64,000 bases of DNA from Myxococcota bacterium (GTDB lineage: Bacteria; Myxococcota_C; UBA6777), in the NCBI GenBank assembly GCA_023150835.1, contig JAKLKB010000033.1, positions 2,411 to 66,410 of the forward strand. Direction: 5' to 3'. Below, one piece after another: positions 1 through 64,000 of the stretch. The notes under the pieces were generated by a model that saw only the letters and a list, made by a program, of their open reading frames with translations, ran no database searches and was not told the DNA's origin. Numbering within the stretch: position 1 is the stretch's first letter; every line of letters starts with the position of its first letter. The translations under genes and the position numbers were made by a program.

Positions 1-30
1 GTTTCCCAATCCCCCCAAGCCCCCGCAGCG

Positions 31-1797: not shown

Positions 1798-1816
1798 TCG
1801 CGAAAGGTGGGTTGTG

Positions 1817-4800
1817 ATGTGTGTGCGAATTGGACCGAGATCATCGAATCGATCGGATGCGGCAAGTGCCTGCACCTCGTTATGGGTTGCAGCCTCCTTG
1901 CCCCCGTATCAGCGGGCTGTACAGATGCTTTTTAAACCAACGATGCTGGTGCCTTGTGTGCTGGGGGGGGGAGGGTTTGATCGCGCTGCTCTTTTGCGGG
2001 AGTGGTTTTGCTTCTTTTGGGCCTGTTTTTCCGTAGGGACGGTGCTTTATGTGTCTCGCGTGGAGGCAGAAAACTGGCAGATCCGCCGCAAAGATCGTTG
2101 GGAGAAAGTCGCCCTTCGATGGCGGCAGCTTTTTCTCCAAGATCCACGACGTGATGACGTTGCACAGCAGCTTTGGCTACATTATGCAAAACGCGGAACC
2201 ACCGAACGATTGATCCAAGAGATCCATCAAACGCCTGTTGGCTCCAAAGAGGCTGATCGAAAGATGCTTGCTCTAGCGCAGCTTTATCATCGCAAAGCCG
2301 CCCATCAACGGGCGTTTGTGTTGTGGACGCTTTTATGGGAAAAACGACAGCGCTTACAAACGTGGCTGCATCCCGCACAGATCGCCCTTTGGAACAGCCG
2401 ATCTCTTCAAGCGCAGGCCCGCTTTTCCGAAGCCCTCGTCTTTCTTCAACGCGCCCAACAAGCCTCTCCCCCAAAGCCCCTTCACCTCAAGATATTGCAG
2501 GAGATCGTTGCACTTTCCGCCTCGCGCCAACAGCCTCTACAAGCCCTTCAAGCACTCCAACACCTTGTCCAACTTCTCCCCAACGATCCACGCCACAAGA
2601 TCGCGATGGCGCAGATCCTTCGACAGCTTCGGCGTTATCGCGAGGCCAGTGCGATCTTGCGCGACGCGATCCAAAAAGCACCCAAGCCCCAACGCCCGAT
2701 GCTTTGGAAACAGATCGCCGAAGATGCCCTGCGAGCAGGTGAACTGGACACCGCCCTCCAAGCCCTCACGCAAGCTCGCCGCTCGCTCGACGCTCAACAC
2801 TGGCTGCACCGCGAGTTGGACCCTCTCGCCATCCGTACGCATCGGCTCCAAGCGTCTTTGCCTGTGTTGATCCGAGACTACGAACAAGCTGTTTCGACCG
2901 ATCCCCAACGCATCCAACCCTTGCTCGCGCAGCTTTACGAAGAGATCGCCCAACCCCAAAAAGCCATCGCGATGTACCAGCAGATCGTGTCCTCTGATCC
3001 GAGCAGCCCGTATTATCCGAAGCTTGCGGGGCTACTTGTTCAACAAGGCCGCACAAAGGAGGCGATCGCGCTGATGCTCCAACGCCAACAGCGCGCCCCA
3101 CAAGACGACACCATCGCGATCCAGACCCTTGACTTCTTCTACTCCCTCGACACCAACGAGTCTTCCAGCACGCTCCAAGCCTTTTTGCGTTCCCCCCTTG
3201 GACAACAACCGCGCTTCCTTGAATCCTTGCTTCAACGTGCGACGGCTTGGAAGCTCGAACCCACGCAACAACTCCCCTTTTATGAGCGGCTGTGTGCGCT
3301 GCCTCCGCTGCGGGCCTCTTGCTTTTCTCGCTGGGGCAAACTCTTGTGGACCTTGCATCGACGTGCCGAAGCTTACGCGACATGGCGACGCATCGAGTCC
3401 TTGCATCCGCCTTCTGCGCGGGACTTGTTTGTGTTGGCGCTCTTGCTTCTTCAACATGAACGTGGCACAGACAGCATCCCGATCCTTGAGCGTGTGCTGG
3501 CTCTTGCCCCCAAACACACACGCGCTCGCTTGCGTCTTGCCCAAGAGCTTCTGAAAGCGGGTGACCCCAAAAAACAGGCTGACGCGCTGTTTCGCCGCGT
3601 CTTGCGCGAAAGCCCTCTGGCCTCTTTGCGCGAACAAGCCCGAAAAGGTGTCATCCAAACTGCGTTTCTTCACTACGGAAAAGAAGGCGCTTGGTTTTTC
3701 TTTTCTTCTCGCTCGACTCTTGAACCTTTGTCTCTTTTTCAAAAGAAATTGTATATCGCTTATGCTTTGGAAAGCCAAGATCGCGCCCTTGCCACTCGCC
3801 AACTCCAAGAAGCGCTGTCGTTTTCACCCGACGATATCGAACTGCATCGCATCGCTCTCTTGATCTACGGCCACACTGCCTCTGCCCTCCCTCATTTTTT
3901 TCGCCTGATCGAGCTCGATCCTGCCCATCAGATGCGCTACCTCCCCGATCTGCTCCATCTCGCCGAAACCCACCGCCAACAACACCGCATCCTCCCGCTT
4001 CTCCAAAGCCTCACCCAACAACAGCCCGATCAAATCAAGCTCTGGCGATGGCTTGGAAAACAAGCTCTTGCTCAAAAGCGATGGCAGCTTGCCCAACAGG
4101 CTTTTTCGGAAGTCTTGCAGCGCGAACCCAACGATACATCGAGCCGCCTCGGGATCGCTCGTCTCCACACACGCGCACAACGCTGGAAAGAGGCTTATAC
4201 CCTTCTCTCCACACCCCCCTTTCCGACACAAGAACACGCGCCTTGGCAGACGTTGCTTTTGCGTGTCGGGCAACATCAAAAAGTGCCGCCTGCACAGTTG
4301 CTCTCTGACCTTCAACGATCGTTGCAAGGTCATCCCGCCCCTCTATTCGGCCTGATGCACCATCTCCAAGAGATCCGCCATAGCCCTCAACCCTCCAAAC
4401 TGCGCCAACATGCGCGCACGCTCACAAACCAACACCTCGATACGTGGCACCACATCGTTCTTGATGCGCGCCAGCCGCTTCGTTATCGTTGGCAAGCCGC
4501 TTTGCTGATCCTCGAAGCCAAACAGAAACGTTCTTTGCCCACCCTTAAACGCCTTTTGCTCGATCGCATCGAGCGTTTGCGTGGCGCTGCTCTGATCGGG
4601 CTGGCCTTTATCGATGGCCTCGATCAATACGCATGGATCAACGAAGCACGCACCCAAGAGCGCCATCACACGGTGCGGATCGCGGCCATGATCGCGGATG
4701 CTTGGGTGCTCAAAGACCCTACCGCTCAACGTTATGCCCTCCAAAGCGCTTGCCATCGGGTGAGCACCCGTTGGCTCCAACGCTTGCTTTGGAGTACGCT

Positions 4801-5113
4801 CGCTCTTCAACCTTCCCTCCAAGAACTCCCCATCCTTGCCTGCCTATTTCGTTACGGAAACGCGGACCTTCAGCGCGACACCCTTCGGCTTCTTGCGTAC
4901 ATGCCGCCCTCTCTGATCTCTCTCTTAAAAGAGCAGCTCCAACAACCCGGATATTCCCGCTGTTTTTTGTACCAAGCTTTTCGCTACCTCAGCCGCCACC
5001 CCGAAGTCTCCCCTGCTGTTCAACAAGCCGCACGCACACAACCCCTCGATCCTCTCGCTGATCTCTGCCGCAGCGAAACAAATAATCGTATCGACCTTCC
5101 CGTCTTTCATTGA
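1817..5113 (+). CDS. Large TPR-repeat protein.
   Basis: The supplied ORF (1664..5113) overlaps the previous gene in another frame. The in-frame ATG at 1817 is preceded by 'aaaggtgg'. The body has repeated helical A/L/Q-rich ~34-aa units typical of TPR. Confidence 0.55.
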   Translation: MCVRIGPRSSNRSDAASACTSLWVAASLPPYQRAVQMLFKPTMLVPCVLGGGGFDRAALLREWFCFFWACFSVGTVLYVSRVEAENWQIRRKDRWEKVALRWRQLFLQDPRRDDVAQQLWLHYAKRGTTERLIQEIHQTPVGSKEADRKMLALAQLYHRKAAHQRAFVLWTLLWEKRQRLQTWLHPAQIALWNSRSLQAQARFSEALVFLQRAQQASPPKPLHLKILQEIVALSASRQQPLQALQALQHLVQLLPNDPRHKIAMAQILRQLRRYREASAILRDAIQKAPKPQRPMLWKQIAEDALRAGELDTALQALTQARRSLDAQHWLHRELDPLAIRTHRLQASLPVLIRDYEQAVSTDPQRIQPLLAQLYEEIAQPQKAIAMYQQIVSSDPSSPYYPKLAGLLVQQGRTKEAIALMLQRQQRAPQDDTIAIQTLDFFYSLDTNESSSTLQAFLRSPLGQQPRFLESLLQRATAWKLEPTQQLPFYERLCALPPLRASCFSRWGKLLWTLHRRAEAYATWRRIESLHPPSARDLFVLALLLLQHERGTDSIPILERVLALAPKHTRARLRLAQELLKAGDPKKQADALFRRVLRESPLASLREQARKGVIQTAFLHYGKEGAWFFFSSRSTLEPLSLFQKKLYIAYALESQDRALATRQLQEALSFSPDDIELHRIALLIYGHTASALPHFFRLIELDPAHQMRYLPDLLHLAETHRQQHRILPLLQSLTQQQPDQIKLWRWLGKQALAQKRWQLAQQAFSEVLQREPNDTSSRLGIARLHTRAQRWKEAYTLLSTPPFPTQEHAPWQTLLLRVGQHQKVPPAQLLSDLQRSLQGHPAPLFGLMHHLQEIRHSPQPSKLRQHARTLTNQHLDTWHHIVLDARQPLRYRWQAALLILEAKQKRSLPTLKRLLLDRIERLRGAALIGLAFIDGLDQYAWINEARTQERHHTVRIAAMIADAWVLKDPTAQRYALQSACHRVSTRWLQRLLWSTLALQPSLQELPILACLFRYGNADLQRDTLRLLAYMPPSLISLLKEQLQQPGYSRCFLYQAFRYLSRHPEVSPAVQQAARTQPLDPLADLCRSETNNRIDLPVFH

Positions 5114-26055: not shown

Positions 26056-28488
26056 ATGGACGCATCCAAGCTTTTTTGTTTTCGACGCATTCTGGGGATC
26101 TTGTTGCTTCTTGGGGGCGTGGGCGTATGGTTTTCTTTGTTGGCTTGTGACGATTATCTCGGTGGTAGCGAAACAAACACAGAGAAAACCGAGAGCGCCA
26201 CCGAAGCCAACCCACCCGAAGAACAGGCTAACCCACCCGAAGAACGCATCCAAAACCCCGAAGAACAGGCCAACCCACCCGAAGAACAGCCCCAATTCCC
26301 CGAAGATAGTGGAATCGAGCAAGGCCCCGAAGAGTCCGTCCTCACCGAGCCTCTTCCTGAAAAAGGACCCGCACAAGAGCGTTCTTGCGCTCGCACGATC
26401 CGCCTCGATACGCGCAAGTTGCCCGGGATGTGTGATGGCGCTTTACCCGATACCATCACTCGCGTCCAAGCTGCGGGCGAATTCAACGCTTGGAACAAAA
26501 CCGATCCGTTGTATGCCCTCCAAGATGCCGACAACGACGGTGTGTTTGAAGGATCGATCTCTCCCCCCGCTGGATCGCACGCTTACAAGTTCGTTTTGAA
26601 CGATAGCGTCTGGTGCATCGATCCCGGAAACCCACAAGAAAAATATGACAACAACATCCGAAACTCTTTGTTGTTAGTCGACGATTGCAAGATGCCTTCC
26701 TTGACATTGGAGCGCCTACACACACCCGCAGGAGCCAAAACGCTCGAAGCCGACGTGCGTTTCTGGCGAGGACAGGGCGGCGGAGACTTTGACAGCCGAT
26801 CCGTTTCGATCACCCTCAACGGTCAGCCTTATACCCAAGCAAGTGTACAGACTGACGGGACGATCCAGATCCGTATGCAAAATGCGGCTTTTGATCGCTA
26901 CACTTTCCGCATCGACGCCAAGGACAAAGACGGTAAAAGCGCAAAGCAGCTTTATTTTTATGGATGGGTCGAAGAAAAAGCCTTCGACTGGCGCGATGGG
27001 GTAATGTACTTCGCATTTGTCGATCGCTTTCACGACGGCGATCCCAAAAACAATGCACCTGTCAACAACATCGCCACACTCGCAAACTACCAAGGCGGCG
27101 ATCTCAAAGGAGTTCTCAACAAGATCCAAGACGGCTACTTTGCCTCGCTTGGTGTCAACGTGATCTGGCTTTCGCCTTTGTATGCAGGCCCAAACCAAGG
27201 AGAACTGGGGTTTGATGGGCGGCGATACAGCGGATATCACGGTTATTGGCCGACCGCTGCACGCAGCATCGAACCCCGCTTTGGAGACTGGGAGCTTTTG
27301 CGCCAAGTCGCACGCGCTGCTCACAAACAAGGCATCCGTCTTCTCGTCGACCTCGCCTCCAACCACGTCCACAGCCAACACCCCTACTTTCAAAACAACC
27401 CAAGCTGGTTCTTTCCCCGCGAGCTTTGCACCGATATCAATTGGAGCAAGCCGATCTCTTGCTGGTTTGATCAATTCCTTCCTGATATCGACTATCAAAA
27501 ATTTGATGCTGCCGCTGCAATGACCGCTGATACGGTGTTTTGGGCGCAAGAAGGCGAGCTCGATGGCTTCCGCGTCGACGCCGTCAAACACATGATCCAC
27601 CTATTCACCCGAAACGTTCGTGCTGCTCTTGAGCGCGAAGTCACACACCAACAACACCATTTCTATCTCGTCGGCGAGACCTTTACTGGCGCGTGGGATT
27701 CGGGCGGTGGGCAGATCATCAAGGATTATGTCAGCCCCGAAGAGCTTTCTGGGCAGTTTGACTTTCCGATCTTTTGGGAGTTTGTCGGCTTATTTGCGCG
27801 ACGCGAAGCCAGCTTCAATTTTTACCGACTGGACGGCGTGATCAAAGAAGTCATCGACAAAAATTATTACGGCAGCGCAAGCATCATGAGCAACTTTATC
27901 GGAAACCACGACGTTCCGCGCTTTGTCTCCCAAGCTGCGGGGCAGATCAGCAATATGTTCAGCGGTGATCGCGGTCGTGCGTGGGATTCCCCTCCCGCTC
28001 TCCCCCAAGACGCCACTCCCTTCAAACGCCTTCGCGTCGCCTTTACCCTATTGATGGGGCTTCCCGGTATCCCCTTGATCTATTATGGCGATGAAGTCGG
28101 ACTCCCGGGCGAAACCGATCCCGACAACCGCCGCATGATGCCTTGGAGCGGCTACTCCGCACAACAGCAAGCCACACTCGATCACCTGAAAAAAGTCGCC
28201 AGTCTACGTCGATCTCACCCCGCCCTCCGCTCTTATCAACGACAAACCTTGTTCGTCGACAATGAACGCTACGCCTACCTTCTCACCGCAGGAAAGCAAC
28301 GCATCATCGTTGCCTCCCGTCGTTCGGGCGATGCCACTCTTTCGATCCCCGTCCAAGGCATCGTCGCCGACGGAGCCTCTGTCCAAGACCTCCTCCGCCA
28401 AAGCAGCCTTTCCCCGCAAGGTGGACGCTTGGCCCTCCCGCTGGACGAAGACGACGCCACCTACCTCTTGCTCCCCGATCTCCCCTGA
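26056..28488 (+). CDS. Alpha-amylase family glycoside hydrolase (GH13), a lipoprotein with an N-terminal 'NPPEEQA' repeat linker.
   Basis: GH13 conserved regions 'LVDLASNHV', 'GFRVDAVKHM', 'YLVGETF', 'FIGNHDVPRF'. Lipobox 'FSLLAC'. ATG 26056 chosen for the signal peptide. Confidence 0.85.
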   Translation: MDASKLFCFRRILGILLLLGGVGVWFSLLACDDYLGGSETNTEKTESATEANPPEEQANPPEERIQNPEEQANPPEEQPQFPEDSGIEQGPEESVLTEPLPEKGPAQERSCARTIRLDTRKLPGMCDGALPDTITRVQAAGEFNAWNKTDPLYALQDADNDGVFEGSISPPAGSHAYKFVLNDSVWCIDPGNPQEKYDNNIRNSLLLVDDCKMPSLTLERLHTPAGAKTLEADVRFWRGQGGGDFDSRSVSITLNGQPYTQASVQTDGTIQIRMQNAAFDRYTFRIDAKDKDGKSAKQLYFYGWVEEKAFDWRDGVMYFAFVDRFHDGDPKNNAPVNNIATLANYQGGDLKGVLNKIQDGYFASLGVNVIWLSPLYAGPNQGELGFDGRRYSGYHGYWPTAARSIEPRFGDWELLRQVARAAHKQGIRLLVDLASNHVHSQHPYFQNNPSWFFPRELCTDINWSKPISCWFDQFLPDIDYQKFDAAAAMTADTVFWAQEGELDGFRVDAVKHMIHLFTRNVRAALEREVTHQQHHFYLVGETFTGAWDSGGGQIIKDYVSPEELSGQFDFPIFWEFVGLFARREASFNFYRLDGVIKEVIDKNYYGSASIMSNFIGNHDVPRFVSQAAGQISNMFSGDRGRAWDSPPALPQDATPFKRLRVAFTLLMGLPGIPLIYYGDEVGLPGETDPDNRRMMPWSGYSAQQQATLDHLKKVASLRRSHPALRSYQRQTLFVDNERYAYLLTAGKQRIIVASRRSGDATLSIPVQGIVADGASVQDLLRQSSLSPQGGRLALPLDEDDATYLLLPDLP

Positions 28489-28489
28489 T

Positions 28490-28721
28490 CCTCCCCCCGC
28501 TGCGTACAACCCTGAGCCTTCGTCCTTGCTTCCCGATCTCCCCTGATCCACCCCCCGCTGCGTACAACCCTGAGCCTTCGTCCTTGCTTCCCGATCTCCC
28601 CTGATCCACCCCTCGCTGCGTACAACCCTGAGCCTTCGTCCTTGCTTCCCGATCTCCCCTGATCCACCCCTCGCTGCGTACAACCCCGAGCCTTCGTCCT
28701 TGCTTCCCGATCTCCCCTCGC
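28490..28721. repeat. 58-bp tandem repeat x4. The first copy includes the last codons and stop codon of the amylase gene.
   Basis: The 'tgcgtacaac' anchor recurs at 28501, 28559, 28617 and 28675. Unit is 'tccaccccNcgctgcgtacaaccctgagccttcgtccttgcttcccgatctcccctga'. Confidence 0.8.
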
Positions 28722-29008: not shown

Positions 29009-29150
29009 TGTTGTGATGGTTTGTGTGTTTCTTGTGTTGTGATGGTTTGTGTGTTTCTTGTGTTGTGATGGTTTGTGTGTTTCTTGTGTTGTGATGGTTT
29101 GTGTGTTTCTTGTGTTGTGATGGTTTATGTTGGTTGTTTGGTTTGTGAGT
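29009..29150. repeat. GT-rich 26-bp tandem repeat (~5 copies) inside a locally AT-richer non-coding stretch.
   Basis: 'gatggtttgtgtgtttcttgtgttgt' recurs with period 26 (29041, 29067, …). Confidence 0.75.
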
Positions 29151-29372
29151 TGTGTGTTTCTTGTGAGTGATGGATTCTTTTTTTGTTGATTTGGGTGTTT
29201 GTGCTTTTTGTTTGAGCCAATTGCCTATTTGAATGTTGTTTCTTTGTGACGTTGTTTTGTGTGTTGGATTTGTTCGGAAGCATCTTTGTTTTGGTAAGTG
29301 TTGTGTTTGTGTTTTTTTGAAAGAATATGTTGGTGACTTGTTCACCGCGTTGAAATGTGAGAGATCGGCCAC

Positions 29373-36629: not shown

Positions 36630-36901
36630 ACAGGATGCCGACATCCTCTCAAGTGCGTTTTTTTGTGAAAAGGAGGATGCCGACATCCTCTCAAGTGCAT
36701 TTTTTTGTGAAAAGGAGGATGCCGACATCCTCTCAAGTGCGTTCAAGTGTGAAAAGGAGGATGCCGACATCCTCTCAAGTGCGTTTTTTTGTGAAAAGGA
36801 GGATGCCGACATCCTCTCAAGTGCGTTCAAGTGTGAAAAGGAGGATGCCGACATCCTCTCAAGTGCATTTTTTTGTGCAAAGGAGGATGCCGACATCCTC
36901 T
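36630..36901 (+). repeat. Tandem array of 7 x 42-bp units. Each holds a perfect hairpin 'GAGGATG-CCGA-CATCCTC', and four of them are followed by T7.
   Basis: Units 1, 2, 4 and 6 end 'tcaagtgcNtttttttgtgaaaag'. Units 3 and 5 have 'gttcaagtgtg' instead. Lies directly 5' of the acetoacetyl-CoA synthetase start (minus strand). Confidence 0.85.
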
Positions 36902-36920
36902 CCGATACAGAAAGGACCGA

Positions 36921-42452: not shown

Positions 42453-45400
42453 ATGAAGAACGTGGACGTGGTGATCGCAGGTCGTTACCGTTGTGCGCGG
42501 CTGATAGGTCGGGGTGGCTTTGCCGAAGTGTACCTTGCCGAAGATCTGCGCCTTGCGAATCGCCGCGTTGCGCTGAAAGTGTTGGTGGAACACGTTGCGG
42601 ATGATCCCGATCGCCTTCAAAAATTTCGCCAAGAAGCCGAGATTATCGGCCATTTGACCAGCCCTTATACGGTGCGGGCTTTCGATTATGGCTACGATGA
42701 GCAAGGGCGTTATTACATCGCGATGGAGTTTGTGCAGGGGGAAACCTTGCACGAGTTGCTAAAGCGGCAGGAGCGGCTTTCGATCGATCGGGCGTTGGAG
42801 GTGGCGATCCAGATATTGGACGCCCTCGAAGAAGCCCATCAGATGGGGATTATCCATCGGGATCTCAAGCCAAAGAACATCATGATCAGCCCGCAGCGCC
42901 AAGGCGATATGGTCAAGGTGCTGGACTTTGGCGTTGCGCGGATCTTGCGACAAGCAGAAGAACAAGACGAGTGGACATTGGTGGGGACGGCGACGTACAT
43001 GGCCCCCGAACAAGCGCAAGGTCTGCCGGTTTCTCCTGCGAGTGATCTGTACTCTGTGGGGGTGGTCCTTTATCACATGTTGGCGGGAAGACCGCCGTTT
43101 TTGTCACAAGAAGACCCTGTTGCGGTGATGATCCATCACGCAACCAAGCCTGTGGTCTCGTTGCGCGAGTTACGCCCAGAGCTTCAGATCCCCGAAGATG
43201 TCGAACAGGCCGTATTGAAGGCGTTGGAGAAACAACCTCAGTACCGCTACCAACAGGCGGGCGCTTTTCGTCGGGCGTTGGAGCGCGCTTTGGCACGCTA
43301 TCTTGAAGCTCATTATGGCGAACCAGAGGGCGATAGCACGCTGAGTACATCGATCACGCTCAAGGATGTCGAAGAAAAGCTCCGTGCCCAAGAGGCCGAC
43401 GCCCAAGCCTCAAGGGCACCTGCTCGCGAACGTGGCGTGATGCCTTCCACTTTGCAAAGCGGAGAGATCCGCGCCCAAGCTGCTTTGCTCGACGATCTGC
43501 ACCGTGTCAACGCTTCTCATACATCGCAAGATCCGATGGCTTCGACTCTCGAAGGCTCTTTCGCGCAAGAAATCGCTTCCCAACACGCCTCGGCGCAAGG
43601 CCCCCAAGCGACACCCTTTGCAGGGGCCGAGTACATCGAGCAGGAAGAAGATGAGGATCAATCCACACAGCGGTTGTCAGGTATCCAAGCCGCTCCCGAA
43701 AAGACAGCGGTACGAAAAACACCGACAGATCGGCCTCGACAGATTACCGATTATGATCTCTTGACGCCGGACTTCCCCGCGATCGAAGAGATCAAAGTCA
43801 ACGAGCAAGGAGCAGGGACGCGCTCGGGGTATTATGCAGCGTCGGGTGATGCTCTGCCTGCGGCAAAGCCGCCTGTGCGCGTTTCTGCGGAAAAAGCGAA
43901 AACTTCACCACGTCAAATGGCGGTGTCGGATCTTCGGGGGCCCTCCCCGAAAGGTGGAGAGTACAGCGACGAAGACGGCGACGAGACGTCGCTGAGTTTG
44001 CAGGATGTGGCGGCGCGTGCGTTGGCCGCCAAGGCCCGCAGCGGAAAGACCACAACAACTCGGGCTGCTTGGTCCGAAGAACAGATCGGCGTCGAAGAAC
44101 GCGATGAGATGACCTTTTCCGAAGAAGACAGCGAGCTTCTCGAAGAAGTCGAAGAGTTGGATGAACACGGCGAAGATGCAACGCTCAAGCCCGGGATGTC
44201 TTCGGAAGAGTTGATCTACGGCTCCAAAGGGGCCGAGATGCGGGATTCTTCGCTGCCAACAGATCGCTCCGATGCTTTTCAATCGGCTCCTGCTTCGGTT
44301 TGGGGGACTGGCGAAGAAGAAGGCTCGACCCAAGTTGGACCCTCTGTGATGGATATCGCGGAGGCTCCGATCTCCCAGACGTATCCGAACTCACAACATC
44401 CTCCGCTCTACGCAGCCCAACACAACGCAGCCCCAGCAGCGGGGCCTACCCAAAACAACGCGATGTCAGGGGCCTTTTCACCACAAAACAACGCGATGTC
44501 TGGAGCCTTTTCGCCGCAAAACAATGCGATGTCAGGGGCCTTTTCACCGCAAAACAATGCGATGTCAGGGGCCTTTTCACCACAAAACAACGCGATGTCA
44601 GGGGCCTTTTCACCACAAAACGGTCCAGCTTCGGGGATGTATGGAACGCCGCCAAAGCAGATGTCCGGGGCGTTTTCTGCCCAAGGTTCGACAAAGCCGA
44701 CGAGCATACCGCCCGCCTTTGGAGAGCATCGATCAGGCGATCAGATCCGCACGATGGCCCCGTCAGGCCCCTCGGCTGCGCAACCGTCGCCCTCAGCGAT
44801 CTTTCAGCCGATCCCCTCCAAAACGTCGGCTCCACCGATGTATGTGAGCAACGGGGCTGTGATGGGTGGTGCCGCAGCTTCGCCTCCCCCGTCGCCGCCG
44901 CCGATCTATCCTGTCCAGCCCACGACAGCGGGGTATCCGCCGCAAGAGCCGACAAATCCTCTTGCACCGCTTCCTGACACGCGGATGTTGCCCATGAACG
45001 AAGTTTCGCCACCTCGGATGCCCAAGGCGGCTTCGCCTGTCCAATCGCTGCTGTCGACGGGTGGCGAGTCTTTGCGCGGGGGGCGCAGCGAAAATGCGTC
45101 GACGATGGAACTCAAAACGGCGTTGATGAAACGTCGATGGTTTGGCTTGATCGGTGCGGTGGTATTTTTGGGGGGGCTGGCGATCTTTTTGATCAGTGTT
45201 GGCGGCGAATCCCAAAAAGATATCGAGAAACGGCAGGCCCAACAGCTTCAAGCCGAGTATATGCGCTCTTTGCAAGAAGGGGATCGGGCGGTGGCGACGG
45301 GCCGTTATCGCGATGCGTTGTCTTCTTACAAGACGGCCTTATTGCACAAAGCCGAGGATCCTGTTGCCACACAACGAATGCAGCAAGTGGTGGTGGACTT

Positions 45401-46857: not shown

Positions 46858-49800
46858 ATGTTCTGGCCACTCACGGAACGCGCATCGAAGGGAAAACCAG
46901 AGTTTGGGCGTATGCCTTGGTTCACCATCGGCTTGATGACAACGTTGTTTTTGGTGTTTGTGTGGACGCGCATCGGGCTGTCTGCGGCAGATCAACGCGT
47001 CGAACAAGCGCGAGAAGCGCTGTCTTGTTATTATTTAACGCACGATTATACACGCATCCCGCCGAAACATCGGGATCTTTTTTCGTCGCGTGTGCTGGCG
47101 CATGCGCGGCGTGCCGAACTCGCGGTGCAGGCTTATTTGACCGACGAACTTGTCCAAAAGAAGGCCCAATCGCTCTTGGGGGGGGGTGAAGAGGGAACGG
47201 ACGAGTGGCGGCAAGAGATGGCTGCCCGCCCCAAAGGGCAGTCTTGCCTTGCGTATGCTTTGCGCCGACGGTTTTTGTCGCGCTCCCCCAATGCGCGGGT
47301 GTATGTGTCGATGGCGCGATTGTACCAAGCGTCTGCACGCAAATACCAAGAAGAACAAGACCAGCTTGTCGCGCATATCCAGCGCATCTTGGACGCCGAA
47401 CAGGCCCATCCTTTGGCGGGATGGGGAGTGCGACCTGCCGTCAACGGGGCAGAAACGATCTTGACGGCTCCTTGGATCCAGCCAAATGTGTTCTCGTTGT
47501 TGTGGTTGTTGTTGTTGCTGTGGCCGATCGGAAAGATGCTCGAAGATCAGTGGCGTTTTCCGATCTGGGGGGCTTGGTGGCTCGCTTCTGCGCTGCTGTG
47601 CAACGGCGTGTTGTGGGTGGTGTTGTCGAGCAGCAAAAGCTTGATCTTGGGGGCGCATGGTGCATTTGCAGGGGTGTTTGCGCTGTGGACGATCGTCTAT
47701 GGCGTAGAGACGGTTCGATGGGCCGTTTGGCTGCCCAAACAGCCCGAACCTCGGGTGTTTGCATTCCAAGGATATTACCTGATCGTGGCGTGGTTTGTGT
47801 TGCAACTTTTCGATACGCTGTTGTTGCAGCGCGCCTCTCCGATCGTTTTTCTGATCCATGTCCTGAGCTTCGGCTTGTTTGCAGGAGCGACTTATTTCTT
47901 GCAACAACAGCGCTGGTTAGAAGTGGTGTTGGGCGAGCCGGTGGCTCCGACCGAAACAGAGATCGCTCAACAAACATGGCGCACCGATGGGCAGATCAAG
48001 CAGATCCAAGAGCAGCACCGTCAAAAACAACTCAAACATGCAGAAGCCTTGGAGCGCAGCAGCCGTTGGAAAGAAGCTGCGCAGATCTACAAAGAACTGA
48101 TGCAGATGGGCCAACCCTCGCTCGAATTGATGTCTTTCTTTATCAGCACCCGTGAAAAGTCTGGTGATCCCGCTTCGATCGAAGAATACTTACAAGCTAC
48201 GCGCTTGGCGTTGTTTGAGCAAAAGCACGCCCAGATGAAGGATCTGTATCTGCGTATGTGTGCAGCCCACGATATCAAACAGCTTTCGCAACGCGAACAT
48301 GTCGCCCTTGCCGGTGAACTCAAGCGCGCAGGATGGCTGCTTGAAGCTGCCGAAGAGGCCGATGCTGCGTCGGAAAAAGGGCAAGACTCCCCGTTGTTTA
48401 TGAAAGCGCTGATCATCCGAGCGGAGTCTCTGCTCGAATACGGCGAAGATCCCGAAGCCGCCATGCGTGTGTTTTATCAAGCCAAAAACTTTTTGCCTTC
48501 CTACCCCGACTTTGAAGAAGCGGTGGTGAAAGGTATGCAAAAAGCACAAGCCGCCGTCGACGCCGAACAGATGGGGCCGCCTGTCTTACCAGCTTCCGAG
48601 CTAGAAGCCGCAACTCCCGCCTTTGGAAGCACCTCGACAGGTCTCAACGCCATCTCGGGAACTTCCGCAGGTCTCAACGCCATCTCGGGAACTTCCGCAG
48701 GTCTCAACGCCATCTCGGGAACTTCCGCAGGTCTCAACACGCTGCGGATGCAAGGACTACCTCGTTCGGCGGCCAAAGTGCCGGTCGCAACAGCCAAAAC
48801 ATCATCCTCCACCGCCAAAGCCCCCCCAAGCACGACGCCCATTCCCCAAGGCCCACCCGGAGCCATCCCCCAAGGCCCACCCGGAGCCGTCCCCCGCCGA
48901 GCGGATGCTGGCCTTCCGTCTGACTACGTCCAGCCTCCCCCCGGACTTGACGGCGAAGAAGCCTTGTTTGGTCGAAGCTTTGATGATCCCTACAAAGAAC
49001 TCAACGAAGCCCCTGCCTCGGGTGCTTCGTGGGAAGAGATCCCAAGCCTTTTGCTTGCTCGTGCTTCGGAGTATGCTGGAAAGTCTGGCTTCGTCAAAGA
49101 AGATGACGCGAAACTTGAACAAGCTGCCGAAGCCCTCAAAGAAAAAGTCGATAACCTCAAAAAAGTTGATGAAGCGTGGCTTTCCGATGACGCAAAGCCC
49201 TCCCCAAATAAAGTCTTTTTTGGTGGTGCCGCCGCAGATCCCAAACGAAACCCCTCGTCAGGTGCCTTTTCCCTTGTCCCCAAACCACCCGTGTCGCCGC
49301 TCGCTTCTTCTTCTGCATCCGTGCCTCCTCGACCCGCTCCTGCCGTCTCATCTACCACTCCTGCCGTCTTATCTACCGCTCCTGCCGTCTTATCTACCAC
49401 TCCTGCCGTTTTATCTACCGCTCCTGCCGTTTTATCTACCGCTCCTGCCGTCTCATCCCCCGCTCCTGCCGTCTTATCCCCCGCTCCTGCCGTCTTATCT
49501 ACCACTACTGCCGTCTCATCCCCCGCTCCTGCCGTGTTTACAGCTACACCACACGCAAAAAGCCCCTCAACATCCCCCAAAAAATCCGAGGGATGGGACT
49601 CTTGGAGCGACGACGCCTTGCCTGCTTCTGAACCTGTCGCTCCTGTGCAGCCCACGCCGCAAGCCGCTCCAAAAGCATCGAATTTCTTTTCAACCGAACT
49701 TTTTTCTCAAGACGCCATCCCTTCGGCGACATCGCTTCCGCCGTTGACCTTTGAAGAACCTTCTTTTGTCTCGTATCCACCGATGCAAGGTGAAGTCTTG

Positions 49801-59278: not shown

Positions 59279-59395
59279 TTACGCAGTTGAAAAGGAAAAC
59301 CCTGAGATGTCAGCACATTATTAGGGGCGGTTCGCCAACCGCCCGCGCCCGAACATGGCCCTTTTTCGTATCCAACTGCGTAAGTCCTATCGAAA
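59279..59395 (+). mobile_element. MITE-like element, copy 2 (same family as 36921..37035).
   Basis: 'tacgcagttgaaaaggaaaaccctgagatgtcagcacattattaggggcggttcgccaaccgcccgcgcccgaacatggccctttttcgtatccaactgcgta'. Confidence 0.65.
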
Positions 59396-59455: not shown

Positions 59456-60652
59456 ATGCCAAAAACGCGGGAGTATATACTTACGCTTTTTCTATCCGCC
59501 CTGTTTTTTTCTTTTGCTCTCGCGCATGGTTGTGGAGAGTCAAAAATTCCAGAAAAAATGGAGCCAGATTCAAGTGTTTCTGAACATTTTATGGATAATA
59601 TAAATAAAGAAAGTAGTCATTCTTCTGAAGCAATCTGTACAAGTTTGTGTGTTCAGGTTTTTGCAGGAGCGCCCGATCAATTTGGAGATTTGGATGGCCT
59701 ATTAAATGCTGCAAGATTCAACTATCTGACCGATCTCCTCGAAACGAAAGACGCGATCTATCTGGTTGATCGCAATAACCACAAGATCAAAGTGATCAAG
59801 GACGGAAAAAGTAGGACGCTGGCAGGAACGGGACAGGAAGGGTACAAAGACGGCGCAGGAAACGAGGCCATGTTCAGTTTTCCCTTCGGCGCGGCATTAG
59901 ACTCCAAAGGAAATCTGTTTGTCACAGAGTTGGGAGCAGGCCGGATCAGACGGATCTCTCCAAACGGGGTCGTTTCTACACTCGCGGGCGGACGTTCCTT
60001 TGGATTTCAAGACGGGTTCGGAGACGAAGCACTCTTTTCTTACTCGATGGCTGATATTTCTATTGATCATCAAGATAACCTCTATGTTTCAGATTCCTAT
60101 AACGTTTCTATTCGAAAAATTACACCAGACGGAGACGTCACAACCATCGGATACGGCAAATCTATTTTTTTGAAAAATAAAGAAAAGCAGTTGCGTGGTC
60201 AGCCTGTTGAGTTCCCGTTGCAACAACCCACGTCTTTAAAGTTCGACACGGAAGGTCGGTTGTACATCGCTGATTGGGAAGGAAACTCGATCTGGCGTAT
60301 CGAGAAATCGGGAGAGGTTGCTCGGTTCGCAGGGACGGGAGAGCGAGGAGATAAAGACGGTCCGAGACAGGAGGCCGAGTTGTTCCGCGTTAATTCGCTT
60401 GCGTTCCATCGAAACGGTGAATTGTTCTTTGCAGAATCTGGCAATCGTAAAATCAAAAAAATTGATACCGCAGGACAAGTGAAAACTGTTGTTTCATCAG
60501 TTACAGGAGTTCTTCGTGGTGCATTACCCATCCCAATAGGAAACATTTTGGATATGGAGTTCGCCGAAGATGGCTCCCTTTATTTCATCGAAGCGAATTT
60601 CCATGTTGTGCGTAAGCTATGGCTGAATTGTGATTGTCCTTTACGGCTCTAA
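59456..60652 (+). CDS. NHL-repeat beta-propeller lipoprotein. The lower-GC region begins here.
   Basis: Lipobox 'SFALAHGCGES'. Repeated 'LYV(S/A)D…N(x)I(R/W)(K/R)I' NHL blades. AT-richer codon usage than the preceding 59 kb. Confidence 0.65.
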   Translation: MPKTREYILTLFLSALFFSFALAHGCGESKIPEKMEPDSSVSEHFMDNINKESSHSSEAICTSLCVQVFAGAPDQFGDLDGLLNAARFNYLTDLLETKDAIYLVDRNNHKIKVIKDGKSRTLAGTGQEGYKDGAGNEAMFSFPFGAALDSKGNLFVTELGAGRIRRISPNGVVSTLAGGRSFGFQDGFGDEALFSYSMADISIDHQDNLYVSDSYNVSIRKITPDGDVTTIGYGKSIFLKNKEKQLRGQPVEFPLQQPTSLKFDTEGRLYIADWEGNSIWRIEKSGEVARFAGTGERGDKDGPRQEAELFRVNSLAFHRNGELFFAESGNRKIKKIDTAGQVKTVVSSVTGVLRGALPIPIGNILDMEFAEDGSLYFIEANFHVVRKLWLNCDCPLRL

Positions 60653-60699
60653 CGAGAGTCCTTCGAAAAGAGAGCGAAATGGAACTTTCATACTTCGAA

Positions 60700-61687
60700 A
60701 CGTGAGTTCGAGCTAAAAAGGTAAGCATTTCTGTTCAGTTACACGAATATTAAGAGAAGGTTTCTCGGGCATCATCGAATAACAGACCAAACCAGACAGA
60801 AGATTGACGAAAAAATTGTAAGGGCTACGGTGGCGCGTGTGGTCGATTTGGCAAACGTGTTTCAGATGTTCGTTGACCGTTTCAATAAATACCCGCTTTC
60901 CAAGAACAAGCGAGTCAAACAAAGTCATCAAACGAGGTTTCATGTTCTTACGCATCGTCGTCACAAGAGAGATTCCTTTTGCGTATAAGTCCTCGAATAA
61001 ATCTTGCGAGATGTATCCACGATCCCCATAGAGTCGGCCAAAAAGACCGTGCATCATATCGGGGACAAGGCTGCGGTCATCGACGTTGGCTTTTGTGATG
61101 CGAAAAGCAAGCAGCTCGCCAATGTCGTTGACAACGAGGTGTAGCTTGAAGCCAAAAAACCAGCCCACGGAATCTTTGCTCCACGAAGCCAACCCTGCGA
61201 AGGTTTTATGGGATTTCGCACGTTTGACATACGAGACGACGAGCTTGGTCGAGTCGACAAAAGAGATGCCGCTGCATTCCCCGAGCAGGGAATGGGCGAG
61301 AAAGTACATGGGGATCATCGCCTCCTTCTGGAGTTCGACAAATCTTTGATAACTTGGAAGATTTGGGAAGCAGGAAGCCCATGCCACGCAAACATGACGA
61401 AGGTAAAAGCCCTTGAGATCGCGATATCGGCTTTGGTGGAACATCACAAGTACCGTCATGACTTCACTTGTGTGCATCTTCCGCTTTCTTTTTGCGACGG
61501 AAAACTCCATCTCTTCGACGTAATCCGTCCAATCCTTCTCGAAGGCTTGATAAAAATCATCGACATGGCAAAAGATTTCGGTTAGATCCATGAGCGTACC
61601 CCTTGCTTTCTTTGGGTGTTCGTTTTGCAACTACACTTTGCCAGAGAAAACAAGCGGGTACAACTTTTTTCTTGCTCGAACTCACGT
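60700..61687. mobile_element. IS982-family insertion sequence (~988 bp) with 14-bp perfect terminal inverted repeats 'ACGTGAGTTCGAGC'.
   Basis: 'acgtgagttcgagc' at 60700..60713. Its reverse complement 'gctcgaactcacgt' at 61674..61687. A single transposase ORF fills the interior. Confidence 0.75.
60713..61591 (-). CDS. IS982-family DDE transposase.
   Basis: 'MDLTEIFCHVDDFYQ…' N-terminus. 'FVDSTKL…', 'GYIS' DDE-region motifs typical of IS982. ATG 61591 with 'aagggg'; the supplied ORF start is TTG. Confidence 0.8.
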   Translation of the reverse strand: MDLTEIFCHVDDFYQAFEKDWTDYVEEMEFSVAKRKRKMHTSEVMTVLVMFHQSRYRDLKGFYLRHVCVAWASCFPNLPSYQRFVELQKEAMIPMYFLAHSLLGECSGISFVDSTKLVVSYVKRAKSHKTFAGLASWSKDSVGWFFGFKLHLVVNDIGELLAFRITKANVDDRSLVPDMMHGLFGRLYGDRGYISQDLFEDLYAKGISLVTTMRKNMKPRLMTLFDSLVLGKRVFIETVNEHLKHVCQIDHTRHRSPYNFFVNLLSGLVCYSMMPEKPSLNIRVTEQKCLPF

Positions 61688-61865
61688 AAAATTAGAGTGG
61701 CGGAAGTTCTGTTCTATTTGTTCGGTGTTCTCGTGGGATGGGGTAGCAAGTGAAGTTCGCAAAATTAGAGTGGCGGAAAATCTGTTCTGTTTGTTCGGAA
61801 AGAACAGTAGCACGCGAAGTTCGGAAAATTAGAGGATTGGAAGTTCTGTTCTATTTGTTCGATGA
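61688..61865 (+). repeat. Three ~60-bp tandem units ('aagttcgNaaaattagagtggcggaagttctgttctatttgttcgg…'). The first abuts the IS right end.
   Basis: Units start at ~61688, 61755 and 61819. An internal CTGTTCT…AGAACAG hairpin sits in unit 2. Confidence 0.7.
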
Positions 61866-62039
61866 GGTGACGTAGAGAGACCGCCCCGAATCCCCCAGTG
61901 ATGTGCGGCGCCAACGCCGCGATCACGTGCGGCCCCCCACGAGGCCAAGAATGAGTAGAGGGGGGCCGTCACGTGGATCCGACTTGTTGGACGGAAGTTT
62001 CATTTCGGATGTTTGCAAGAGAAGAAGTGCGATAAGGAA

Positions 62040-62350
62040 TCTTCACAAATGCGAAGGCAAAAAGAATTTCGCGGGAAAAGCTGTTCACATCCCGAAGGGC
62101 GCGAGGTTTCAAGCGATGTTCGATTTGGTTTGTTCGCGGGATGCGGAGGCAAGGGGAAATACGCGGTCAAGTCTATTTACCCTCCGAAGGGCAGGGCGTT
62201 TCAGGAAAAGATCGCTTTGAATGGTTCGCGGGATGCGGAGGCAAGGGGAAATACGCGGTCAATCTTGTTCACACGCCGAAGGGCAGGAGGTTTCAGGAAA
62301 AGATCGATTCGATTTGTTCGGAAAGAACGGTAGCAAGGCGAGAGCAGAAA
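62040..62350 (+). repeat. Mosaic repeat block 'Y' (internally duplicated). Homologous to block 'Z' at 63620..63840 on the other side of the GTPase gene.
   Basis: Shared modules 'gttcacaNNccgaagggcNNgNggtttcaNg', 'gttcgcgggatgcggaggcaaggggaaatacgcggtcaa' (x2 exact) and the tail 'atttgttcggaaagaacggtagcaaggcga'. Confidence 0.7.
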
Positions 62351-62377
62351 AATCGGATACTTTTTTGAACGCTCGAT

Positions 62378-63457
62378 TTAATTTCCTGCCAACTTTTGCT
62401 TGAAAGCGTACGCAATTTGCTCGGCCGTTGGAGATTTGGATGGATCGTCTTTCAAAAGTAAATAGAGCGTTCCTATGTAGGCTTCGCCGAAAGCGGTAGT
62501 AAGTGCGATAGAAGTTCCAGCAGCAATGGTTCCACCCACGAGACTCCCCACACCGGGGATCAATTTTAGTAACGAACTGACAATTGCCCGCCCAGCAACT
62601 GTTGCTGCCACCCCTGTAAAGGTACTAGCAACCAACGTGCTGATAAAAACTTGGGACACGGGGAGACCAAAAGCGGCGCTGATACCCGCCAACATCCCGA
62701 CCTGTACAGGAACAATCAATATTGCGTCTGAAAATGGAATTGGAGTGGCAGCAGCGGCACCTGCGACTGTTGCACTTGCTGCCACCACCGTATGAGCACG
62801 GTTGACTTTTTGCTCAAGGCTGACTTTTTGTGCTGCCGCGAATGCGTTTTTTTGACTCTCCGGGACGAGTTCCATTGTTAACTCGACTAATTCCTTGAGA
62901 CCTTTTACCGAAATTTTATGACCATCATCAAAGATTTCTTCGACAGCATGAACGCTTATAACATTGCGTGCTTTGGGGAGTATCTTTTGAACTTCTGCGC
63001 GGAAGCCTTTATCCGCTTTTGCTTTCGTAATCACAACAACAGTGGGGATATGAGCTGACAACATTTCAACGAGTTGTATTTCTCCTTCTTCGACTCTTCT
63101 CGAATCCTCGGAGATACAAACCCATGCAACGTGCATATGACGATGGGCTTCTGTTTCTTGCTTTCGCTCTTCAATGAATTTTTGCAAGGAGTTGACGGTT
63201 TGTTTGTATTCTGCGAGTTCTAGCCCTCTCGTGTCGAACAATGAAACAGGAATTCCTTCTTTGGTGATTTCTCTTGTGTTTTGTGTCACAGGGCGTCCTT
63301 GTCCTGTTTCTGCCAAATTTCCTTGGAACACTGCGTTGATCAATGTGCTTTTACCAACACCTGTTTTCCCTGCCAGAATAATGTTCACTTTGCCTCGGCG
63401 TTTTAATGCTTCTTCCACAGCGTTTTTTACAGTATCAATCAAGCCCGGATCCAACAT
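62378..63457 (-). CDS. GTP-binding protein with an N-terminal Era/EngA-like (MMR_HSR1) GTPase domain and a C-terminal Gly/Ala-rich hydrophobic DUF697-like domain.
   Basis: G1 'LAGKTGVGKST'. G3 'DTRG'. C-terminus 'AGAAAATPIPFSDAILIVPVQVGMLAGISAAFGLPVS…'. ATG 63457 with 'aagaggag' 5 nt upstream; the supplied ORF start is TTG. Lower GC. Confidence 0.7.
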   Translation of the reverse strand: MLDPGLIDTVKNAVEEALKRRGKVNIILAGKTGVGKSTLINAVFQGNLAETGQGRPVTQNTREITKEGIPVSLFDTRGLELAEYKQTVNSLQKFIEERKQETEAHRHMHVAWVCISEDSRRVEEGEIQLVEMLSAHIPTVVVITKAKADKGFRAEVQKILPKARNVISVHAVEEIFDDGHKISVKGLKELVELTMELVPESQKNAFAAAQKVSLEQKVNRAHTVVAASATVAGAAAATPIPFSDAILIVPVQVGMLAGISAAFGLPVSQVFISTLVASTFTGVAATVAGRAIVSSLLKLIPGVGSLVGGTIAAGTSIALTTAFGEAYIGTLYLLLKDDPSKSPTAEQIAYAFKQKLAGN

Positions 63458-63619
63458 TTCAACTCCTCTTCGTTTTTCAGTTTTTTCTGCGAACAACCAC
63501 TATATCTTTTGGCTCGGAGATAACCAAAAGTCAAGTTTTTTCTTCTACCGCTTGTTGTTTAAAGATAGCAAATAGAGACCAGAAAAGAGAAGAATGGACA
63601 GCTTGTTATTAAATCTTCA

Positions 63620-63840
63620 CAACGTGCATAGGCAAAAAGAACAACGCAGGAAAAGATGTTCACACCCCGAAGGGCGCGAAGTTTCAAGAGAACATCGGTT
63701 GGGGATGTTCGCGGGAGGCGGAGGCAAGGGAAGATACGAGAGAAAGTCTATTAAAATGCCGAAGGGCAGGAGGTTTCAGGAGAACACCGCTTCGATTTGT
63801 TCGGAGAGACCGACGCAAGCGAAGGATTCTCGCTCGCTCT
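63620..63840 (+). repeat. Mosaic repeat block 'Z', collinear with Y at ~75-80% identity and without indels.
   Basis: 'gcaaaaagaacaacgcaggaaaagatgttcacaccccgaagggcgcgaagtttcaag…gttcgcgggaggcggaggcaaggg…gccgaagggcaggaggtttcagg…atttgttcggagagaccgacgcaagcga'. Confidence 0.7.
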
Positions 63841-64000
63841 CGCTGGCAAGTCTTAGCGCTCAAAACATTTTTTTCTTGGCTCATGTTGTGTTTTGAGGTC
63901 TTCTAAGGTACCTCATGAGCGACGTTTTTGATCGAGTGGGTCCGTTCAAACCAACCTCAGCTAGGGCAACCACAGGGGGTTGCCCCTACATGTTGGAAAT

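Follow-up and report, generated by a model that had tools for sequence, protein, structure and literature searches.

Integrons are the main gene-capture platforms of bacteria, and the origin of their cassettes, each consisting of a gene and an attC site, is an open question. Sedentary chromosomal integrons are defined by a place on the chromosome, attC sites of high similarity and a large array that commonly exceeds 20 cassettes (PMC8876359, PMC8352920). The attC site is an imperfect palindrome of 57-141 nt with an R'' box (RYYYAAC), an R' box (GTTRRRY), an L-type inner stem, extrahelical bases on the R''/L'' arm and a variable loop (PMC8352920), and crossover at the integron core site falls between G and TT (PMC8876359). 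Chromosomal integrons have already been reported in Deltaproteobacteria and in sludge Myxococcota. Here we analysed a stretch of 64,000 nt (hereafter the window) from an uncultured activated-sludge Myxococcota bacterium (assembly GCA_023150835.1, contig JAKLKB010000033.1, positions 2,411-66,410 of the forward strand), near the end of which short modular repeats (blocks X, Y, Z and a set of units that we call W) had been predicted to be structured RNA or recombination sites. An attC-type hairpin among these repeats, an integron integrase at the end of the homologous array of a relative and a G|TT junction in that same array led us to read ~59.2-64 kb of the window as the integrase-distal end of a sedentary chromosomal integron cassette array, with X/Y/Z/W as its non-coding backbone. 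We hold this reading to be probable.

The locus and its relatives resemble sedentary chromosomal integrons, e.g., the V. cholerae superintegron with its VCR attC sites, in several respects. The homologous array likewise has an integrase at one end, the arrays are long series of co-oriented, near-identical attC hairpins (95% identity here) with a G|TT crossover, and the cargo consists mostly of small genes of unknown, defence or resistance function and of atypical composition. Unlike in those integrons, the homology between cassettes reaches hundreds of bases past attC on both sides as 64- and 92-nt units in tandem, this backbone makes up ~60% of the array, several cassettes are backbone alone, and no integrase was seen for the window's own genome. 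To our knowledge, attC is the only sequence common to unrelated cassettes in described integrons, and a search of the full-text literature turned up no account of tandem repeats within cassette arrays. Backbone homology that extends beyond attC and fills most of the array, together with the commonness of repeat-only cassettes without an open reading frame (ORF), thus appears to be new relative to the chromosomal integrons described so far.

Cassettes without ORFs are known as individual unique sequences with demonstrated small RNA (sRNA) or promoter activity (PMC8876359). The ORF-less intervals described below share with the sRNA cassettes of Xanthomonas and the promoter cassettes of Treponema that they are bounded by attC and hold no ORF. 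They differ in being a tandem-repeat mosaic that also flanks gene cassettes, and neither an RNA nor a promoter signal emerged.

An attC site between the repeat blocks

The key element, which the original prediction did not single out, is a GC-rich hairpin of 84 nt at 61909-61992 (minus strand), situated between blocks W and X. Its top strand, which is the minus strand of the window, reads R'' GTCCAAC ... R' GTTGGCG, and its bottom strand is the plus strand of the window. The R'' box fits RYYYAAC at 7/7 positions and the R' box fits GTTRRRY at 5/7. Taken alone, the site folds as a single imperfect hairpin closed by CCAAC/GTTGG pairs, with a 21-nt terminal loop and two single-base bulges on the R'' arm (T and G, bottom strand). 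Its DNA-fold z-scores are -3.6 and -4.2 at the window site, within an overall range of -3.6 to -4.4, and the z-score of -2.8 obtained for the segment that combines W with the hairpin is due to the hairpin.

The site is strongly conserved among related arrays. Twelve aligned copies from four datasets, 83-85 nt in length, are 95% identical, with all differences in the loop, the spacer and a single bulged base. The covariance model derived from these 12 copies scored the window site at 113.7 bits (E 2.5e-24) and recovered 20 distinct intact copies in three related datasets, all of them on the cassette-sense strand, along with further decayed or truncated copies. In the window the model found one firm attC, that at 61909-61992, and it found none in the 59 kb of core genes or in a control locus (L009). 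On these features, the hairpin is the predicted attC site of a cassette that carries a GTPase gene, with the attC bottom strand as the predicted recombinogenic strand and the predicted crossover between 61915 and 61914.

Two other hairpins touch on this subject. A 50-nt element at 63949-63998 (strand ambiguous), which lies 70 nt past the backbone homology and is cut by the window end, has CCAAC/GTTGG closure and an 8-bp inner stem but another type of sequence; it may be a second, heterologous attC, though its covariance-model score (7.5 bits, E 1.7) is weak and too little for a claim. The hairpin GGGCGGTTGGCGAACCGCCC at 59330-59350 (minus strand), between the genes for a GYF-domain protein and an NHL-repeat protein, holds the GTTGGCG word of the attC R' box. 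It is not detected by the attC model and could be the remnant of a terminal site or a coincidence.

Cumulative GC skew is positive on the plus strand over most of the window, which suggests that this is the leading strand; the attC bottom strand would then lie on the lagging-strand template. The orientation reported for the Vibrio chromosomal integron is the opposite one, and the present placement would favour the excision of cassettes.

The integrase end of a homologous array

A protein search with a spurious ORF crossing block X returned 'proteins' called on two long NCBI contigs, one of 972 kb (loci L045 and L046) and one of 198 kb (L047), each with an array of more than 12 kb. The original prediction had advised a check for a recombinase near the repeats, and the array of L047 indeed ends at one. 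The gene at L047:13884-15203 encodes an integron integrase (NCBIfam TIGR02249, 329 bits against a cut-off of 265, positions 5-314 of 315), whose best match in the PDB is VchIntIA (2A3V, E 3.5e-58), aligned through the IntI-specific insertion. The integrase is directed away from the array and most cassette ORFs are on the opposite strand, which is the usual divergent layout of integrons. In the integrase-proximal copy of attC (L047, ~12315), homology is kept through ...GCGGCGCCAAC and stops right after ...CGCCAAC, beyond which the sequences diverge abruptly. Judged by its position, this break is the G|TT crossover expected at the junction of attI and the first cassette.

The L047 integrase has an N-terminal extension of ~120 aa relative to VchIntIA, and the ~1.6 kb between the attI-type junction and the annotated integrase start (L047 12320-13880) contain a tandem repeat of the 9-mer CCCTTGTGA and an AT-rich tract. 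An insertion may separate attI from intI in this contig.

All attC sites of these arrays are on one strand, with 6 intact and 1 decayed copy in L045/L046 and 5 copies plus the junction remnant in L047, and they are spaced by 1.4-4 kb. The array is chromosomal, being flanked by rlmN, udk and other core genes, and every contig breaks inside it. Its chromosomal setting varies among relatives. In GCA_964267905.1 (L046 1-6700) the distal array end adjoins homologues of the window genes at 1-5108 (77-80% identical) and not the udk/GYF locus, and the udk locus of that genome (L009) has no array. On its integrase side, the array of L047 adjoins homologues of L009 14070-19079 (L047 15620-20443). That these integrase-side genes are homologous to those downstream of udk in L009 is consistent with the same chromosomal site as in the window. 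Either the integron or its chromosomal surroundings underwent rearrangement among these close relatives.

Repeat architecture in the window

The mosaic of short modules described in the original prediction proved real. The motif CCGAAGGGC-N5-GTTTCA occurs five times against an expectation of 0.37, on the plus strand only and with every copy inside the repeat region. The 39-bp module GTTCGCGGGATGCGGAGGCAAGGGGAAATACGCGGTCAA is present in exact copies at 62132 and 62224 and in a third copy with 3 mismatches at 63707, and three AAAATTAGAG units start at 61688, 61761 and 61825, with spacings of 73 and 64 nt. A 179-nt block (62050-62228) recurs gap-free and in register at 62142 (77%) and 63625 (79%), in agreement with the earlier estimate that Y and Z align without gaps at ~75-80%, and Tandem Repeats Finder (TRF) gives a tandem period of 92 nt at 62132-62320 (2.1 copies, 87% matches). 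The remaining 59 kb of the window (1-59194) contain no copy of the X/Y/Z/W modules.

Block W (61688-61861) is composed of three tandem 'W-B' units of 64-73 nt, with the pattern AAAATTAGAG..GGAAG.TCTGTTC..TTTGTTCGG..GCAAG, and, read on the cassette-sense (minus) strand, forms the 5' portion of the outermost cassette. Such units adjoin every attC of L045, L046 and L047, with 3-10 units per site. Between the W units and the R' box of attC lies a leader (61862-61908) that is kept in all related copies, including the integrase-proximal one of L047. On the other side of attC, a conserved proximal spacer leads into module X0 (together 61993-62083), a diverged C-type unit (TCTTCACAAATGCGAAGGCAAAAAG...) that aligns with the C modules and comes after attC in nearly every cassette.

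Blocks X and Y (62084-62343), the 3' non-coding part of the GTPase cassette on the sense strand, are 92-nt tandem units in which module A (..CCGAAGGGC..GTTTCA..) and module C (GTTCGCGGGATGCGGAGGCAAGGGGAAATACGCGG) are repeated and then followed by A and B. Block Z (63612-63879) precedes the GTPase gene on the sense strand and reads X0-A-C-A-B followed by module T (..CGCTCGCT.TCGCTGGCAAGTC..AGCGC.CAAAACATTTTTTT); the same X0-(A-C)n-A-B-T order is found in L045, L047, L025, L029 and L043. Window positions 61685-62337 are similar to an ORF-less backbone cassette of L046, and in block Z the similarity to the backbone spans 63612-63873. Alignment of all units identified the 64-nt W-B units, the 92-nt A-C units and the X0 segment as mutually diverged relatives.

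The B module occurs in two versions, the central 8-9 nt of which are apparently inverted (AAAGAACAG vs TGTTCTCG, with the parallel variants AAAGGACAG vs TGTCCTTG). Both versions are seen in W-B units (window 61720-61745 vs 61795-61810; L010 13700-14100), where they frequently alternate and so generate a higher-order repeat of 128 nt.

Related arrays and an ORF-less backbone

The pattern of the A module was used to scan species-representative genomes and metagenome contigs. Among the species representatives, the orthologous contig of the metagenome-assembled genome (MAG) KLAP109 was the sole real match, the six others being single chance matches. Among metagenome contigs, ~10 carried modules around unrelated genes, and most of these came from JGI 3300012956, a dataset that also carries the udk gene of the window. 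Together with the protein search, more than 12 loci were found in which the modules flank unrelated genes. Read along the plus strand of the window, the order is attC-X0-(A-C)n-A-B-T-A-B-(W-B)n-attC, and all modules share one orientation.

In L045/L046 and L047, one ORF-less repeat interval has similarity to 57-60% of the 12-14 kb arrays. Several attC-to-attC intervals are ORF-less, for example L045 12929-14471 and three consecutive ones of ~1.4-1.6 kb each in L047 (5619-10138). Every cargo-bearing cassette examined is collinear with this ORF-less backbone, with the cargo at variable points; in L046, for instance, a 535-bp cargo splits one W unit, which resumes in register on the other side. 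The modules also vary from strain to strain, as one cargo that is 98.8% identical in two strains sits beside differing module strings. Among relatives, flanking core genes differ by 10-23%, yet attC is nearly identical, which points to cassette exchange or concerted evolution.

The cargo of the related arrays includes a protein of the Arr-ms (rifampicin ADP-ribosyltransferase) family, Zn-ribbon/OB-fold proteins, small secreted proteins and a DUF4145 protein that matches the PADLOC model PD-T7-4 (1.7e-18); the loci concerned are L046 6861-7310, L027 548-1243, L043 344-967 and L038 1305-1862. Upstream of several cargo ORFs there is a conserved module of ~100 nt that contains, by eye, TTGACT-N17-TATGnA on the cassette-sense strand (L025 707-815; L027 51-160 and 1487-1596; L036 2181-2290, reverse). 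It is absent upstream of the GTPase gene of the window. The placement of this module suggests that some cassettes carry a shared, putative promoter.

Cassette genes, IS982 and genomic context

Exact protein matches assign the window to a Myxococcota MAG (NCBI proteins MCK65101xx), and the GTPase protein described below is likewise on record in identical form. The gene order at this end of the window is rlmN, udk and the GYF-domain gene, all core genes, followed by the NHL-repeat gene, an IS982-family element, the repeats and the GTPase-DUF697 gene on the minus strand. GC content falls to 47% over the last 4 kb of the window, and the GC content at third codon positions (GC3) is 0.43 in the NHL gene and 0.40 in the GTPase gene vs ~0.6 in the 59 kb of core genes. 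The GTPase gene (62378-63457, minus strand) codes for a P-loop GTPase (Pfam MMR_HSR1) with a DUF697 membrane domain. Its true start is the ATG at 63457, with GAGGAG ahead of it, and its orientation agrees with the attC top strand. By its placement and strand it is a predicted cassette cargo in standard orientation with its own attC at 61909-61992. The protein has a weak match to the PADLOC LeoBC model (7.9e-8).

The NHL-repeat protein gene (59456-60652, plus strand; Pfam TEN_NHL/NHL) is on the strand opposite to the other cassette ORFs and probably represents the outermost cargo in the low-GC island. In the orthologous locus L010, backbone modules come directly after this gene. The Logan contigs that carry the GTPase and NHL proteins are short ones only.

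The IS982-family insertion sequence (IS) occupies 60700-61687 on the minus strand, with a transposase ORF at 60713-61591 (Pfam DDE_Tnp_1_3, 1.7e-64) and terminal inverted repeats ACGTGAGTTCGAGC and GCTCGAACTCACGT. Its right repeat (...GCTCGAACTCACGT) ends at 61687 and touches the first W unit, and the original prediction had suggested an insertion into or beside the array. The orthologous locus of the MAG KLAP109 (L006, the same as L010) has no IS, and ...catact|CCGAAGGGCAGG... runs on into the array. What remains of the CCGAAGGGCAGG core in the window is 'tcgaa' alone (60695-60699), and in L010 the NHL gene is directly followed by CCGAAGGGC... and seven 64-nt W-B units vs three in the window. 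Because the IS-free orthologue shows an uninterrupted array, the element inserted into the array itself and some adjacent array sequence was lost. Copies of the IS982 family that are 86% identical lie within the cassette backbone of two genomes (L046 7496-8390 and window 60700-61687). In both of them array sequence is missing beside the element, and in L046 the attC next to X0 is gone.

The window is unusually rich in tandem repeats outside the integron as well (36632-36902, 44451-44621, 28467-28718, 29009-29173, 49334-49535 and ~50 more TRF rows). In one of these, a 42-nt unit that contains the hairpin AGGATGCCGACATCCT is repeated 6.5 times, apparently at the 5' end of a minus-strand gene or just upstream of it.

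Proposed organization of the array

We infer from the comparison of arrays that the attC bottom strand, i.e., the plus strand of the window, would fold, be bound by the IntI tyrosine recombinase and be exchanged at G|TT of the R' box GTTGGCG. Such an exchange would let the GTPase cassette and its neighbours excise and reinsert. The 92-nt repeats of X/Y/Z and the 64-nt repeats of W would not be recombination sites but a conserved non-coding backbone on either side of every attC, with cargo genes placed at variable points within it and some attC-to-attC intervals made of backbone alone. Cassette duplication would have spread the backbone, and its units probably changed through slippage or unequal homologous recombination with one another. 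The backbone would in turn supply long tracts of homology for RecA-type loss and shuffling of cassettes. IS982 entered it later. The best account of the backbone itself is that it is passive or selfish.

Several observations weigh against this reading. The window holds only one solid attC, the R' box of which matches GTTRRRY at just 5/7 positions, and longer single strands can place this box in the loop of a local hairpin (GCGGCG-TTGG-CGCCGC). The covariance-model search found no terminal attC outside the NHL gene. No integrase is present in the 64-kb window, where the array runs off the window end, and the window MAG has no close homologue of the L047 integrase, the next best match being 56-61% identical; the array of the window could therefore be an attC cluster without integrase. 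The attI junction of L047 lies farther from the integrase core than usual, at ~1.6-1.9 kb. Finally, the conservation of the units is patterned, which hints at a function beyond that of a passive backbone.

Alternative explanations of the repeats

We consider it rather unlikely that the units are regulatory elements of ORF-less cassettes, acting as sRNAs, anti-Shine-Dalgarno or GGA sponges, promoters, terminators or insulators. Precedents exist in the sRNA and promoter cassettes of Xanthomonas and Treponema integrons (PMC8876359), and conservation of the units is not uniform: CCGAAGGGC is invariant in ~109 copies beside variable flanks, and GGGATGCGGAGGCAAGGGGA is nearly invariant. Some A variants can form a UUCG-capped hairpin around CCGAAGGGC on the sense strand, which a scan called terminator-like, and in the first A unit after X0 (window 63680-63659; also L045) this hairpin would have 9 bp and a U-rich tail on the cassette-sense strand. 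However, the commonest A variant is unable to form the hairpin, and in a shuffle test the two flanks of the A core, left and right, show marginal covariation (2.71 vs 2.56 and 2.67 vs 2.55 pairs). Rfam returned no match for the repeats at the gathering threshold and chance-level microRNA matches alone at E<=5, and no tRNA or tmRNA was found. On both strands, the folding energy of the X block lies in the range of shuffled sequence (z +0.55 and -0.87). The structured-RNA reading of the units, one of the two favoured by the original prediction, is not supported.

Sites for sigma-70 promoters and intrinsic terminators are not enriched in the window region or in a 3.6-kb stretch of the L045 array, part of which is an ORF-less cassette. 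On the plus strand of an ORF-less cassette, GGA shows a modest excess (50 vs 37.5 +/- 4), whereas in the window its count is within noise (24 vs 20 +/- 3). A CsrA sponge, considered for these GGA motifs, was dropped because the enrichment is weak.

It is unlikely, in our assessment, that the units are arrays of protein-binding sites on DNA, whether accessory IntI sites or sites of a nucleoid or silencing protein that would organize or silence the cassette array. What speaks for binding is the presence of invariant words at fixed spacing amid variable bases (CCGAAGGGC, GGGATGCGGAGGCAAGGGGA, and TGTTC 2-3 times per 64 nt), the abundance of GTTC (36 occurrences vs 10 +/- 2.8 in shuffles, with strong strand bias) and the odd palindrome TTCCGAA, which recurs on the sense strand. 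But any repeat family is expected to over-represent words, no candidate binding protein emerged, and the words read GTTC.. and differ from the IntI core GTTRRRY. On inspection of the sequence, the modules were for the same reason rejected as IntI core-like sites. Thus, of the earlier suggestion of recombination sites, it holds that the blocks belong to a recombination system, whereas the attC features reside in the hairpin at 61909-61992 rather than in the modules. Likenesses to parS, LexA-box and sigma-54 motifs were also considered and dropped, since the motifs do not match.

Broader versions of a functional backbone, i.e., a dedicated chassis amplified to provide landing pads or lineage-specific cis-acting units (protein-binding or RNA) that silence or mobilize cassettes, appear distinctly unlikely. 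Considered by itself, the chassis explanation, in which genes would become cassettes by inserting into a pre-formed ORF-less repeat cassette that already carries attC, seems quite improbable. It draws on the collinearity of all examined cargo cassettes with the ORF-less backbone, the cargo lying at one variable point, and on the 535-bp cargo of L046 that interrupts a W unit whose register then resumes; IS982 shows that the backbone takes insertions. Against this, cargo junctions have no common signature and no insertion machinery was identified. The L046 cargo is flanked by diverged copies of the W end and would fit replacement by recombination equally well, and existing cassettes could likewise have come to share their ends through homologous recombination.

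Pneumococcal BOX, Neisseria NIME/dRS3, E. coli BIME and mycobacterial MIRU elements are dispersed over many intergenic sites. The repeats of the window resemble these families in having ordered non-coding modules with variable internal copy number that differ among strains; the layout of BOX (A-Bn-C) and of NIME arrays is similarly modular, and the genome has many other tandem repeats. Nevertheless, it is very improbable that the repeats are such a dispersed family that came to lie near attC by chance. Unlike those elements, the modules stay within integron cassettes, and at all recovered loci they share the orientation of attC and keep a constant order with respect to it; the 20-kb control locus L009 and the remaining 59 kb of the window contain none. 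For copies at unrelated sites more generally, the scan of species representatives gave one contig, a count that is not exhaustive given the fragmentary assemblies. A phage origin was rejected on a comparison of the module patterns with viral contigs, which gave 0 matches.

A CRISPR-like array or a protein-coding repeat can be dismissed, in line with the original prediction: the A module (GTTCACA..CCGAAGGGC..GTTTCA) is superficially repeat-like, direct repeats at regular spacing are shared with CRISPR arrays and long ORFs traverse the blocks, but there are no unique spacers (the 61-nt 'spacer' is the conserved C module, others being B and W), no cas genes were seen associated with the array, the 92- and 64-nt periods are not multiples of 3 and so move the reading frame from one unit to the next, and Pfam has no family matching the ORFs across the blocks.

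Implications

If the array is organized as we propose, the backbone repeats explain why such arrays break metagenome assemblies. Should the backbone be a mere by-product, it would still provide a clear natural case of concerted evolution and of homologous-recombination instability inside an integron. If it is instead a functional element or a landing pad, cassette genesis or array silencing would become directly testable, and in the case of a chassis, gene capture into a pre-existing attC context would be the way in which this integron makes new cassettes. In either case, the cassette pool of this common wastewater bacterium includes a homologue of rifampicin ADP-ribosyltransferase and a phage-defence-like protein.

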